A DNA stretch of 64,000 bases, from the NCBI GenBank assembly GCA_044892525.1, contig CM097885.1, positions 7,380,001-7,444,000 on the forward strand, written 5' to 3'. The notes beneath the pieces are model-generated. The model was given only the letters and a program-made list of their open reading frames with translations, did no database searches and had not been told where the DNA came from. Of this stretch, positions 1 through 51,809 are shown piece after piece. Source of the DNA: Schmidtea polychroa. Its lineage: Eukaryota. The position numbers and the translations under genes were made by a program. Numbering within the stretch: position 1 is the stretch's first letter; every line of letters begins with the position of its first letter.

Positions 1-6290
<6,290 letters not shown>

Positions 6291-6371: not shown

Positions 6372-20074
<13,703 letters not shown>

Positions 20075-22380: not shown

Positions 22381-22472
22381 TCAGGGACATTTAAAACTTC
22401 TAAAATTTAAATCAAATAATTTAAAAATCAATATTATTTAATTATAAGATAACGCCAATCAAACATTCTTTT

Positions 22473-22511
22473 CACGATATATTTCGACAGTTTTCCTGTC
22501 ATCATCAGGTG
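22473..22511 (-). ncRNA. Minimal type I hammerhead ribozyme (family 2)
   Basis: Minus strand CAC-CUGAUGA-U-GACAG(GAAAA)CUGUC-GAAA-UAUA-UC-GUG. Confidence 0.85.
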
Positions 22512-22663
22512 GGATATAATAACTCATTAAATTAAGGATTTTAAACAAATTTATTAATTATATATAAAAAAAATTTTTATTTTATAAAAACATTTAATTA
22601 TTTTTAAAAAATTATACTTAAATTAATATTAGAGAAACGCCAACTCAATAAATTCAACATAAA

Positions 22664-22704
22664 CGCGATATATTTCAATTGTACAACAATCTTCGTCAGG
22701 CTGC
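22664..22704 (-). ncRNA. Hammerhead ribozyme motif in the PLE 3' UTR/pLTR
   Basis: Minus strand GC-CUGACGA-A-GAUUGU(UGU)ACAAUU-GAAA-UAUA-UC-GC; stem I is short. Confidence 0.75.
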
Positions 22705-23017
22705 AATCTGGATAATCAATAATAAGACATAAAATATGCAATATCTAAACAAATTAACTAATAATAATCATCTCCAAACTGTATCAAAAATTTTAAAAAA
22801 AAATATTTTAAAAAAAAAAATATTTCAAAAAAAACATTTTAAAAAACCAAACCATATTTTACATAACCCACATACATATTATTTTAAAATTAAATTTTAA
22901 TTTAATCACATTTAACATTCAACATAAAATTAACAAATTTTAAAAAACAAATTACATAGTTTACAAAACACAAACATAATTATACCACAAACAAGACTCC
23001 CAACCTTCATCCTTCAA

Positions 23018-25249
23018 TTACTTAAACACATTCAAAATCTCCGTGGAACGGGCAACTTGATCATTTATTTTTGGATTTAAATATCTAATCAACAATGCCT
23101 CACAAGTTACTCGTTCCCAATAATTACTTAAACCTTTTGAAATAATTTTAAAATCAGAGATACCTATTTTTTTACTGACACATTTCCTAACATGATTACT
23201 AATATTAGTCAATCCTTTTGGTCGACAGTGTTCAAGAACTCGGGTGCAGAGATGACGGGCAGTCTCTCCAATGTATATGGCATTACACCCATTACATGAA
23301 AATTGATACACAAGCTCAGAACACAAACCAATTGGCGTTGGACATTTACTAGTAAACATACTGCTAACTTTGCAAGAAGTGGAAACAATCCTGAATTGAT
23401 CCTTGTCTACATATTTGAGAATTTTATGTTTAAATTCTCTGAAACCCTCCGAATAAGGCAATACTAACACATATTTCGGCTCCATGCGATTGGATCGATT
23501 CTTGTCACTTTCCGAATTTAACATAGTACTTTCCTCAGGATCAATAGGTACCTCAGATTCAGACGTACGCATACCAACGTTATCAGATTTAAACATTAAC
23601 TTATCCACAGTCACTTTTGTCATTTTCTCAAGAAAAGATTTAGAGTAGCCATTTTTAAGTAACAACTCAACCAATACATCAATACTTTTTACTGAATTAG
23701 CAAACGTGGAGGATAGTGACCAAGCACGAAACACTAATCCTCTCACCATATTCCTTTTATATTTAAACTCACAAAAACTATCAGGCGTTGTATATAAACC
23801 AGTATCCGTCGACTTTCTATATATTTCAGTCTCATAATGTTTCGATTTGCGTTGAATGAGTAAATCTAAAAACGCAATCGATGACCCTTTTTCTTCCTCA
23901 CATGTGAATTTAATATTCTTATGCAAATCATTCATAAAATATAAAAACGGCATTACATGTTCACGACTCTCAAACACCAAAAAAATATCATCCACATACC
24001 GTTTGTACACACTAGGTTTAACAAGATGGCATGAAGACATTTTCTTTTCCAAACTAGACATAAAAATAGAAGCCATAGTTGGGGCTAATGGAGAACCCAT
24101 AGCAACACCATCCACTTGTTTATACCATTCATTATTAAACAAAAAGTTAACATTCGACGTTGAAAATTCAAGCAATTTGCGAAAAGCAATTTTATCCACA
24201 TTCTTATGTTCAGACTCATTATTATTCCACATTTCACAACATAAATCAATCGTTTCCGCCAATGGAACATTAGTAAAAAGACTACACACATCAAACGAAA
24301 CCATCACTTCATCATCAGAACTTTTCTTCAGTGCAGCAATGAATGAAGCAAATTCAAAGCTATCCTTACATTCGAACTCAGACACCATTAACGGTTTTAA
24401 TAACCCATCCAAAAATTTGGCAATTTTATATTGAGCGGTTCCTACCATCGATAACACTGGTCTCATAGGCATACCTGCTTTATGTACTTTTGGAAGACCA
24501 TAAAGCTTTGCGGGTTGAGATCCTTTCGGTTTTAGGAATTTCACCAAATCTATATCAATATTTTTATCATCCGACAATTTGTTTAACATTTTTATCAAAG
24601 TTAGTTCATCTTTCAGAGGAGGCAACTTCCCATTTTTTCGACAACTACCATCTTTAACAAACTGTGGAGATGACAAAACATCGTTCAATTTATTCACATA
24701 CACATCATGGTCTAAGATAACCAAACCATTACCTTTATCATATTTACAAACGTTAATATCTTTTTTAGCTAAATTCTTCAAGATCAAAAAATCTTTTATA
24801 TCTTGTTTTTTATTTTTATTAATATAATCAATCGTACTCACATTCAACAAATTCTTTACATAATTATTATCTATATTCTTATCAAACACGCACATATTGT
24901 AGTACAATCTTTCAATTTTAGCACACAGTTTAGTTTTGTCAATACGATTTTTAATACCATGATTAGGACCATATTTTAAAATTCGCTCTTCATCATGTGT
25001 CAACACAATTTTACTCATATTTAAAAATGTCTCCTTTACATCAAACTTATAAATACCAAACAATCTTCTTAAATTATTCAACTTTTTAATATGGGAATCA
25101 TACTTATGCTTTAATTGTAACTCAGAGCAATTGATACACCATTTGATACAATATTGAAAACGAAAATCACCAATCAACCTGATCAAAACCGCTTCTATTC
25201 CAACTAATTCATCATCCAAAATCCGCTTCTTTTTCTTCTGTGCTTCCAA
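23018..25249 (-). CDS. PLE reverse transcriptase + C-terminal GIY-YIG endonuclease; frame stays open upstream to the truncation at ~25291
   Basis: LYGLPKVHK, SFDVCSLFTNVP, GVAMGSPLAP, YKRYVDDIF, FLDL, YRKST; endonuclease VYQFSCNGCNAIYIGET..RVLEH..H..EALLI..PKIN. Confidence 0.97.
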   Translation of the reverse strand: MEAQKKKKRILDDELVGIEAVLIRLIGDFRFQYCIKWCINCSELQLKHKYDSHIKKLNNLRRLFGIYKFDVKETFLNMSKIVLTHDEERILKYGPNHGIKNRIDKTKLCAKIERLYYNMCVFDKNIDNNYVKNLLNVSTIDYINKNKKQDIKDFLILKNLAKKDINVCKYDKGNGLVILDHDVYVNKLNDVLSSPQFVKDGSCRKNGKLPPLKDELTLIKMLNKLSDDKNIDIDLVKFLKPKGSQPAKLYGLPKVHKAGMPMRPVLSMVGTAQYKIAKFLDGLLKPLMVSEFECKDSFEFASFIAALKKSSDDEVMVSFDVCSLFTNVPLAETIDLCCEMWNNNESEHKNVDKIAFRKLLEFSTSNVNFLFNNEWYKQVDGVAMGSPLAPTMASIFMSSLEKKMSSCHLVKPSVYKRYVDDIFLVFESREHVMPFLYFMNDLHKNIKFTCEEEKGSSIAFLDLLIQRKSKHYETEIYRKSTDTGLYTTPDSFCEFKYKRNMVRGLVFRAWSLSSTFANSVKSIDVLVELLLKNGYSKSFLEKMTKVTVDKLMFKSDNVGMRTSESEVPIDPEESTMLNSESDKNRSNRMEPKYVLVLPYSEGFREFKHKILKYVDKDQFRIVSTSCKVSSMFTSKCPTPIGLCSELVYQFSCNGCNAIYIGETARHLCTRVLEHCRPKGLTNISNHVRKCVSKKIGISDFKIISKGLSNYWERVTCEALLIRYLNPKINDQVARSTEILNVFK

Positions 25250-25323
25250 AGTTCTACGTAACGTTTTCCGGTGGATTGAAGTAATATCTTCAATAATAAT
25301 AATATAATAATAATTATAATAAT

Positions 25324-27100
25324 AACCCGCAAAGCTTTATGGTCTTCCAAAAGTACATAAAGCAGGTATGCCTATGAGACCAGTGTTATCGATGGTAGGA
25401 ACCGCTCAATATAAAATTGCCAAATTTTTGGATGGGTTATTAAAACCGTTAATGGTCTCTGAGTTCGAATGTAAGGATAGCTTTGAATTTGCTTCATTCA
25501 TTGCTGCACTGAAGAAAAGTTCTGATGATGAAGTGATGGTTTCGTTTGATGTGTGTAGTCTTTTTACTAATGTTCCATTGGCGGAAACGATTGATTTATG
25601 TTGTGAAATGTGGAATAATAATGAGTCTGAACATAAGAATGTGGATAAAATTGCTTTTCGCAAATTGCTTGAATTTTCAACGTCGAATGTTAACTTTTTG
25701 TTTAATAATGAATGGTATAAACAAGTGGATGGTGTTGCTATGGGTTCTCCATTAGCCCCAACTATGGCTTCTATTTTTATGTCTAGTTTGGAAAAGAAAA
25801 TGTCTTCATGCCATCTTGTTAAACCTAGTGTGTACAAACGGTATGTGGATGATATTTTTTTGGTGTTTGAGAGTCGTGAACATGTAATGCCGTTTTTATA
25901 TTTTATGAATGATTTGCATAAGAATATTAAATTCACATGTGAGGAAGAAAAAGGGTCATCGATTGCGTTTTTAGATTTACTCATTCAACGCAAATCGAAA
26001 CATTATGAGACTGAAATATATAGAAAGTCGACGGATACTGGTTTATATACAACGCCTGATAGTTTTTGTGAGTTTAAATATAAAAGGAATATGGTGAGAG
26101 GATTAGTGTTTCGTGCTTGGTCACTATCCTCCACGTTTGCTAATTCAGTAAAAAGTATTGATGTATTGGTTGAGTTGTTACTTAAAAATGGCTACTCTAA
26201 ATCTTTTCTTGAGAAAATGACAAAAGTGACTGTGGATAAGTTAATGTTTAAATCTGATAACGTTGGTATGCGTACGTCTGAATCTGAGGTACCTATTGAT
26301 CCTGAGGAAAGTACTATGTTAAATTCGGAAAGTGACAAGAATCGATCCAATCGCATGGAGCCGAAATATGTGTTAGTATTGCCTTATTCGGAGGGTTTCA
26401 GAGAATTTAAACATAAAATTCTCAAATATGTAGACAAGGATCAATTCAGGATTGTTTCCACTTCTTGCAAAGTTAGCAGTATGTTTACTAGTAAATGTCC
26501 AACGCCAATTGGTTTGTGTTCTGAGCTTGTGTATCAATTTTCATGTAATGGGTGTAATGCCATATACATTGGAGAGACTGCCCGTCATCTCTGCACCCGA
26601 GTTCTTGAACACTGTCGACCAAAAGGATTGACTAATATTAGTAATCATGTTAGGAAATGTGTCAGTAAAAAAATAGGTATCTCTGATTTTAAAATTATTT
26701 CAAAAGGTTTAAGTAATTATTGGGAACGAGTAACTTGTGAGGCATTGTTGATTAGATATTTAAATCCAAAAATAAATGATCAAGTTGCCCGTTCCACGGA
26801 GATTTTGAATGTGTTTAAGTAATTGAAGGATGAAGGTTGGGAGTCTTGTTTGTGGTATAATTATGTTTGTGTTTTGTAAACTATGTAATTTGTTTTTTAA
26901 AATTTGTTAATTTTATGTTGAATGTTAAATGTGATTAAATTAAAATTTAATTTTAAAATAATATGTATGTGGGTTATGTAAAATATGGTTTGGTTTTTTA
27001 AAATGTACCTGACGAAGATTGTTGTACAATTGAAATATATCGCGTTTATGTTGAATTTATTGAGTTGGCGTTTCTCTATTATTAAATCATTGCCACGTTT
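25324..27100 (+). mobile_element. Penelope-like element, right (inverted) arm; ORF 25368-26822
   Basis: Near-identical reverse complement of ~22625-24516. One synonymous SNP seen in the ORF; ~133 bp (22701-22833) is absent just 5' of the HHR. Confidence 0.95.
27004..27045 (+). ncRNA. Hammerhead core of the right PLE arm (stem I 5' strand altered by deletion)
   Basis: CUGACGA at 27009, same stem II and GAAAUAUAUC as 22664-22704. Confidence 0.65.
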
Positions 27101-27738
27101 TTTTGATTATTTATTAAATTAATATATTATTTTTTTAAAATTTTAGCATTTAAAATTTAATTTAATAATTTAAAAAATTTTTATTAATTATTTAATTTAA
27201 TACAACAATCAATACTATTTATCAATATTATTTTATCAATATTTTTTATCAATATTATTTTATTTATATTTTATTTTATTAATATTATTTAAAATTTAAA
27301 ATCAAAATTTTCCAATAATATCAATACAAAATAAATTTTTTTTAAATTAATAGATAATGATCAAATCCACATGAAAAAGGCACGGCCAAAAATTCGTGAA
27401 TATAAAAAACATCGATATATTTACTGATTCATAGTGAAGCGTTTTAGTAAATACAATGTCAATCAGAGAAATCAGAGGTGGAAATCGAAAGTTAATATTA
27501 TAATTATAGTTTAGATTAATTATTATACAAAATAATAGTTGAATTAAAGTGTATCATATGACAATGAATATTCTGTCGAATATGTTAATCAGTTTCATTC
27601 TATGAACAGATCTTGATTCGTTCACCAGCGATTTTTCGGCGAATAGTTCGCAGGTGTAGTCATCACTAATTTTTGTTTACAAGATCTGTTTACAATAAAT
27701 ATTCAAACATTTGTTTTGGTTTTTTGTCGAAAATTGAA

Positions 27739-50992
<23,254 letters not shown>

Positions 50993-51449
50993 ATATTTCA
51001 ATGGTTTATCGAAATAATTTTAAATTGTAAATTATTGACTATTAAAATAACTTTAAATAGTTTTTAAATTGGATTTCTTAAGTTGAAATTTTTAAATTAA
51101 AAATTAAAATAGCTTTTTAAAAAAAGAAGTTTTATTAATGAAAAATTTTAAATAAATATGTTTTAAATATTGAAATATTTTGATAAATGGTTTTGAAAAT
51201 ATTTTATTCAACGCGGAAAATTTTTTGTATATTGTATATATGGATTGTTGTTGTTAAATTAAATAATTATTAAATTATTAAATTAAATTTCAATATTTTA
51301 AAATTTTATATTTGATTGATAAAATTAAAAAAAATAATATATTATTTGAATTATAATGTTTTAAAGAATGAAATATTTTTAAAAATTTTTTTAATATAAT
51401 TAATAATTAATACAATTAATAATCTATAATTTCTATAGTTATTATATCC

Positions 51450-51488
51450 TACCTGATGATAACAGGAAAACTGTCGAAATATATCGTA
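51450..51488 (+). ncRNA. Family-2 hammerhead ribozyme copy
   Basis: UAC-CUGAUGA-U-AACAG(GAAAA)CUGUC-GAAA-UAUA-UC-GUA; flanks match 22441-22530; followed by (AAT)n. Confidence 0.8.
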
Positions 51489-51554
51489 AGACGAATGTTT
51501 GATTGGCGCTTTTTTATAATCAAATCGTTGCCATTCATGTTTAATTATTTAATC

Positions 51555-51809
<255 letters not shown>

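Follow-up and report, generated by a model that had tools for sequence, protein, structure and literature searches.

How do two different hammerhead ribozymes come to lie in tandem on one strand, and can they act together? This question is raised by a 64,000-nt stretch of Schmidtea polychroa DNA (the window), on whose minus strand one hammerhead motif (H1; 22704-22664, CUGACGA core starting at 22699) is followed by a second (H2; 22511-22473, CUGAUGA core starting at 22508). An earlier note on this DNA, whose positions for both motifs were confirmed by reading the sequence and by a descriptor search, had proposed that a Penelope-like element (PLE) landed beside a related pseudo-LTR (pLTR) and gained a partner ribozyme, the AUAUAU palindromes of the two motifs cross-pairing into a double hammerhead.

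Minimal type I hammerheads with a small palindromic helix III have been described in the pLTRs of metazoan PLEs (Cervera & De la Pena, 2014; PMC4209133). They resemble H1 and H2 in the CUGANGA/GAAA/UH core, the extra base between positions 9 and 10.1, the short stem I and the palindromic stem III region, as well as in having many dispersed copies from truncated elements and a presumed action as dimers. The dimers described there consist of one motif, whereas in the window two family variants are adjacent. Here, we report that an inverted pair of copies of one PLE family (family 1) very probably landed in the AT-rich 3' UTR that belongs to a stub of a related family (family 2), and that the H1-H2 tandem is likely to be a functionless by-product.

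Results

Two end motifs of related Penelope-like families

In both motifs the CUGANGA box goes with a single extra base that follows A9, and stem II has 5 bp and is capped by a loop of 5 nt. With its intact core, stem II, extra base and palindromic stem III region, each has the sequence features of a minimal type I hammerhead of PLEs. Stems I and II of H1 are unlike those of H2 while GAAAUAUAUC is common to the two, just as the earlier note had read them. H1 has a G10.1·U11.1 pair in place of the usual G-C of the hammerheads in PMC4209133. With C17 at 22667 in H1 and at 22476 in H2, the predicted cuts fall at 22667/22666 and 22476/22475 and are 191 nt apart, which bears out the interval of about 191 nt given before.

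A stricter hammerhead descriptor matched only H1 and H2 within the window and found no match in 400 kb of other genome stretches. An Rfam scan of the window at the gathering score returned no match; minimal PLE hammerheads need a custom descriptor. Across the 781 Mb of the genome searched (29% GC in sampled stretches), exact 33-nt cores numbered 298 for H1 and 790 for H2, against none for reversed-pattern controls, so that each motif is far beyond chance. Of 136 family-1 copies, 132 have UAUAUC after GAAA, and so do 47 of 51 family-2 copies. H1 and H2 are thus the standard motifs at the ends of two abundant Penelope-like families that are related to each other, which is why GAAAUAUAUC is found in both, and we infer that the shared stem III derives from common ancestry. 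H1 and H2 belong to the known minimal PLE hammerheads, and the supplementary alignments of PMC4209133 may include both families.

The relationship extends to the proteins. The two families are homologous, with an amino-acid identity of 73% over the reverse transcriptase (RT) and 56% over the C-terminal part. The tails that follow H1 and H2 are also similar, since they are the starts of the two reading frames. The family-1 AUG lies 6 nt past the predicted H1 cut (L063:4313 onward; 22660 in the window), and a corresponding AUG is present in the family-2 tail. Cleavage at H1 would leave an RNA that starts with a 5'-OH and has hardly any leader before its reading frame.

The family-1 insertion is an inverted pair

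H1 lies in the 3' pLTR of a family-1 element that forms the left arm of the insertion (22630-25291, minus strand). This arm comprises a 5'-truncated frame of RT and C-terminal GIY-YIG (stop at 23018-23020), a 3' UTR and H1, and it has no tail at its short end. Its RT part matches RVT_1 (E 3.8e-12), and the last 104 amino acids match GIY-YIG PF01541 with E 3.8e-4 and 21.1 bits, slightly below the Pfam cut-off of 22.6; VYQFSCxxCxAIYIGET and two downstream histidines are visible in the C-terminal part of family 1. A full-length relative (L063) has a frame of 834 amino acids. Family 1 thus has the features of an endonuclease-positive Penelope-like element, a single RT frame with a C-terminal GIY-YIG; Naiad/Chlamys membership is excluded by the domain order outlined in PMC8557442.

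A short (TAT)n filler (25292-25323) separates the left arm from the head-to-head right arm (25324-27113, plus strand), an inverted family-1 copy that is further 5'-truncated, shares 1683 nt with the left arm at 99.9% identity and ends in a long tail, which is found at the right end of the pair only. The right arm lacks 133 nt of 3' UTR, equivalent to 22833-22701. Because of this deletion, a third core at 27009-27041 (plus strand), identical to H1, is without the 5' strand of its stem I. The deletion junction, at 26990-27041 (plus strand), is seen in none of 92 other family-1 copies. The gap starts near GT and ends at AG, and a spliced intron was considered as its source. This was rejected, as the junction AAAATGTACCTGACGA is not the one that clean splicing gives, and most copies lack the AG, about 65 of 92 reading GCGGC.

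Among the first 100 listed H1 cores, direct pairs 2.8-2.9 kb apart were seen and 25 outward-facing inverted pairs were counted. Partial pLTR tandems, an inverted truncated copy and a one-sided tail are all present in family 1.

The family-2 end is split by the insertion

Family-2 copies have a long AT-rich 3' UTR ahead of H2. The window holds this UTR in two pieces: counted from the core, positions -211 to -109 are found at 27215-27114 and positions -114 to +76 at 22622-22433, in register on both sides of the family-1 insertion and with ATATTAATTTAA at each junction. The upstream half of the stub (27114-27215, minus strand) is 98% identical to the family-2 copy L040 over 102 nt; the downstream half (22440-22629, minus strand), with 3' UTR, H2 and a short end, shares 185 of 190 positions with L040 over 22622-22433. 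Comparison of the junctions identifies ATATTAATTTAA as a target-site duplication of 12 bp, at 22618-22629 and 27114-27125 (minus strand), the limits of which are ambiguous by a few bases owing to microhomology. The older family-2 stub has a candidate duplication of its own, an AT-rich 13-bp sequence at 22427-22439 matched at 27221-27233 (both minus strand); it is less certain, as a third copy is present at 27248-27260. Thus, the earlier suggestion that a PLE had landed at a related one is correct in that an insertion joined two related families, but the element landed inside the family-2 end rather than beside it, as the split stub and ATATTAATTTAA reveal.

The order of events would then be as follows. 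The family-2 stub was presumably present first at the site, and the head-to-head family-1 pair would have been inserted later into its 3' UTR, probably by family 1's own GIY-YIG endonuclease and RT, making the 12-bp duplication and putting H1 191 nt upstream of H2. An inverted pair has outward-facing hammerheads, and therefore any insertion in a family-2 UTR gives an H1-H2 tandem on the same strand.

Family-2 remains are locally frequent, with five motif regions in the window compared with two in 400 kb of sampled genome. A separate family-2 fold-back stub at 28028-28480, 0.9 kb beyond the nest, carries a minus-strand core at 28131 that is exact but has A as its base 1.1, together with a plus-strand copy that has decayed, and two older family-2 stubs with damaged motifs lie at 51221-51562 (plus strand) and 12976-13058 (minus strand). 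The window also contains a third hammerhead-like motif, CUGAUGA...GAAACUAGUC with the palindrome ACUAGU, at 13320-13352 (plus strand); it sits in a 220-nt repeat of 89% identity with a related copy within 42779-42998. Positions 1-6150 are taken up by a tandem array of four nearly identical units, each about 1.5 kb long and made of short sub-repeats and (TAA)n tracts.

Recurrence of the tandem

A genome search with the two-motif query gave 1561 candidates; none of the 40 best was a second match over the full length, and the core is broken in the only partial one among them. In the first 111 Mb of contig C1, an exact H2 lies within 1 kb of one of 44 exact H1 cores, and this is the window's own. 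For exact copies under uniform placement, 0.03-0.08 adjacent pairs are expected genome-wide before a roughly fivefold bias towards AT-rich targets is considered, so that the adjacency is only mildly unlikely.

The 575 nt behind each of 144 other family-1 ends were then examined (85 + 25 + 34). The first set was taken by position from the 100 listed cores, of which eight were left out (two the window's own, six already sampled); the remaining 92, of which 91 were distinct, gave 85 ends after subtraction of six internal pLTRs. The second set consists of 25 ends from the two-motif query and the third of 34 further ends, and all tandem counts refer to these 144 ends and to the first 100 listed places per core. 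A family-2-like motif was found behind 5 of the 144 ends, at four distinct loci and always on the same strand (four loci versus none). Three of them belong to the first set (L068, L126 and L129; 3/85), and the other two flanks are not independent, being the query locus L061, which came from the two-family query, and a duplicate of L129. An intact second core was found at none of the four loci: that of L068 lacks G5, that of L126 has A for C3, and the others have decayed. A conserved chimeric H1-H2 element was therefore rejected, as the 40 best hits contain no full-length copy and the 144 ends no intact pair.

One of these loci is a second independent nest, at 3.69 Mb on contig C1 (3688400-3691100; L068/L156), in which a family-1 inverted pair lies in a family-2 3' UTR with a duplication of its own. 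Its insertion point is about 50 nt nearer the H2 core than that of the window, and it is here that H2 is without G5. Its short end (L156) is cut back to 17 nt past the predicted cleavage site.

Family 1 might recur at such sites by homing on family-2 ends, its endonuclease recognizing the homologous tail and cutting the AT-rich DNA just upstream, so that tandems arise repeatedly. The two clear independent nests only about 50 nt apart in the family-2 UTR are consistent with homing, as are a further two or three less clear cases, none of which departs from the same-strand order, and the similarity of the tails; in Drosophila virilis Penelope, the tail is reported to be necessary for endonuclease recognition (cited in PMC11167929). 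However, the 59 further ends yielded no new independent case, their two matches being L061 and the L129 duplicate, and the 57 independent ends among them added no family-2-like neighbour. No second intact H1 was found behind a family-1 end in 92 flanks, although the family's own tail should be its best target. The reverse order, a family-1 motif downstream of H2, was seen in none of 42 H2 flanks, many of which are from one array region.

The base composition of the targets offers another account. Among 86 family-1 ends, 51% lie in 40-nt stretches of at most 5% GC, compared with 1.9% of background windows, and the family-2 UTR has 5-7% GC. The family-2-like neighbours in the first, unbiased set (3/85) exceed the 0.125 per 100 ends expected under uniform placement, a rate that is based on two hits in 400 kb. 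Weighted for AT-richness, the expectation rises to 0.29 per 100 ends, or to 1.06 at the upper limit of the background, and the probability of two or more per 100 becomes 0.035 for the point estimate and 0.29 at that limit. Within error, AT-rich target bias thus suffices for the recurrence, and we regard homing as unlikely. PLEs are known for such behaviour: they tend to land within or beside copies already present (reviewed in PMC6765202), AT-rich targets are on record (PMC3846280), and an anole PLE cleaves AT-rich DNA in vitro (PMC11167929).

Pairing of H1 with H2 in a mixed dimer

Even if the nest is accidental, co-transcribed H1 and H2 might form a mixed double hammerhead, cut at one or both sites and release a 191-nt RNA. 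Both cores are intact and have AUAUAU in common, and their spacing is like that of natural family-2 tandems (139-198 nt). It is plausible that a promoter in the family-1 pLTR transcribes both motifs, as inferred from PMC6765202. No run recorded as RNA was listed as containing this stretch, which weighs neither for nor against expression. Minimal PLE hammerheads are reported not to cleave as monomers and to cleave at low levels and slowly as dimers in vitro (PMC4209133), and the anole Penelope hammerhead is reported to cleave only with its protein present (PMC11167929). A natural cross-family hammerhead dimer was not found in full-text literature searches, as judged by titles and the starts of abstracts.

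The strand order of the hammerhead bears on this. In a dimer, A15.1 pairs with U16.1 of the other motif, and U16.1 brings with it both the cut site and stem I's 3' strand; a crossed stem III therefore entails an exchange of stem I. The two families differ in this stem: at pair 2.2-1.2, 130 of 136 family-1 copies have G-C, whereas 48 of 51 family-2 copies have A-U, a compensatory difference. The junction that would cut H2, made of the H1 5' strand and the H2 3' strand, has C-G and G·U followed by mismatches, and thereby keeps two stem I pairs, equal to the contiguous pairs of native H1. The junction that would cut H1, made of the H2 5' strand and the H1 3' strand, has C-G and then, in place of a second stem I pair, the mismatch A·C. 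Exchanged stem I pairing was thus not found in both junctions, and release of the 191-nt RNA needs both, the mismatched A·C junction included.

Folding calculations point in the same direction. The crossed stem III of six A-U pairs is sterically possible in a nested fold, but its ensemble probability is below 0.01. In a nearest-neighbour model, which has no terms for tertiary contacts or protein, the mixed dimer costs 17.8 kcal/mol more than the best fold that 22760-22440 can form, against 7.9 kcal/mol for an H2 monomer and 7.4 kcal/mol for an H2-H2 control. For four H2-H2 neighbours that occur naturally in a tandem array, two being near-identical copies, the values were 6.0, 6.0, 6.6 and 9.0 kcal/mol. 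The H1-H1 control costs 15.0 kcal/mol, near the value of the mixed dimer, and hence much of the penalty is H1's own, and real folds may be undervalued by the model. The 191-nt piece folds no better than shuffled sequences (z +0.35), and an unusual structure for it was rejected.

Taken together with the loss of the second core at the four other loci, these values make a working mixed dimer very unlikely; H1 and H2 are predicted to pair poorly and would probably cleave poorly as a mixed dimer. The earlier idea that the AUAUAU palindromes could cross-pair into a double hammerhead holds as far as the six A-U pairs are concerned, but fails to take in the exchanged stem I with its A·C mismatch and the cost of 17.8 kcal/mol. 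That the element had gained a partner ribozyme is not supported, given this mismatch, the lack of chimeric copies among the 40 best hits and the broken second cores at the other four loci.

Discussion

Nothing out of the ordinary marks the locus as a nested insertion: one Penelope-like family sits in a related one, a behaviour that is already known. It is like the insertion units described for endonuclease-positive PLEs, which have a head-to-head inverted 5'-truncated copy, a 30-40-nt tail at one end, a target-site duplication, AT-rich or microsatellite targets and nesting of family in family (PMC3846280, PMC8557442). The closest case is from Adineta vaga, in which Pen2a was inserted into Pen3 with an inverted pLTR, a tail and a 9-bp duplication (PMC3846280). 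There, as described, the target was an asparagine-rich coding insert and the orientation was opposite, whereas in the window the target was the 3' UTR just upstream of the host hammerhead. Family 1 is also like Poseidon PAc of Anolis carolinensis, which has RT followed by GIY-YIG, a hammerhead near the start codon, an AT-rich target and a tail that is the start of the reading frame (PMC11167929); PAc is reported to be cut 26 nt after the start codon, whereas the family-1 AUG lies 6 nt after the predicted cut.

The non-LTR retrozymes of animals (PMC7229834; bioRxiv 10.64898/2026.07.22.740005) share with this locus tandem type I hammerheads and, at 170-400 nt, a similar cut-to-cut unit. As described in these sources, however, retrozymes consist of one unit that is tandemly repeated, multi-copy and expressed, whereas the 191-nt unit of the window is an unrepeated two-family chimera, half family 1 and half family 2; in the sample of the 40 best hits and 144 other ends, no second copy was found. 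It could be imagined that the families sharing AUAUAU complement each other, that family 1 homes on family-2 ends and that the nest releases a 191-nt chimeric RNA as a nascent retrozyme-like circle, but we hold this combination to be highly improbable.

For a working double hammerhead, a more promising candidate than H1-H2 is found elsewhere. Family-2 ends form tandem arrays at 225.65-225.69 Mb of contig C1 (L043, L044, L051 and L062:6415-7560), with units of 139-149 and 197-198 nt, intact and broken cores mixed, and eight units in L062. The arrays are repeated at several places within 40 kb, adjoin long open frames and have the appearance of retrozyme-type arrays that arose from the end of a PLE.

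With regard to the accidental nest itself, it would date family 1 later than family 2 at this site, and it provides a ready natural construct for the stem I mismatch tolerance of dimeric hammerheads. Should the mixed dimer cleave, the ribozymes of one Penelope family could process the transcripts of another, and nesting could be a source of chimeric retrozyme-like RNAs.
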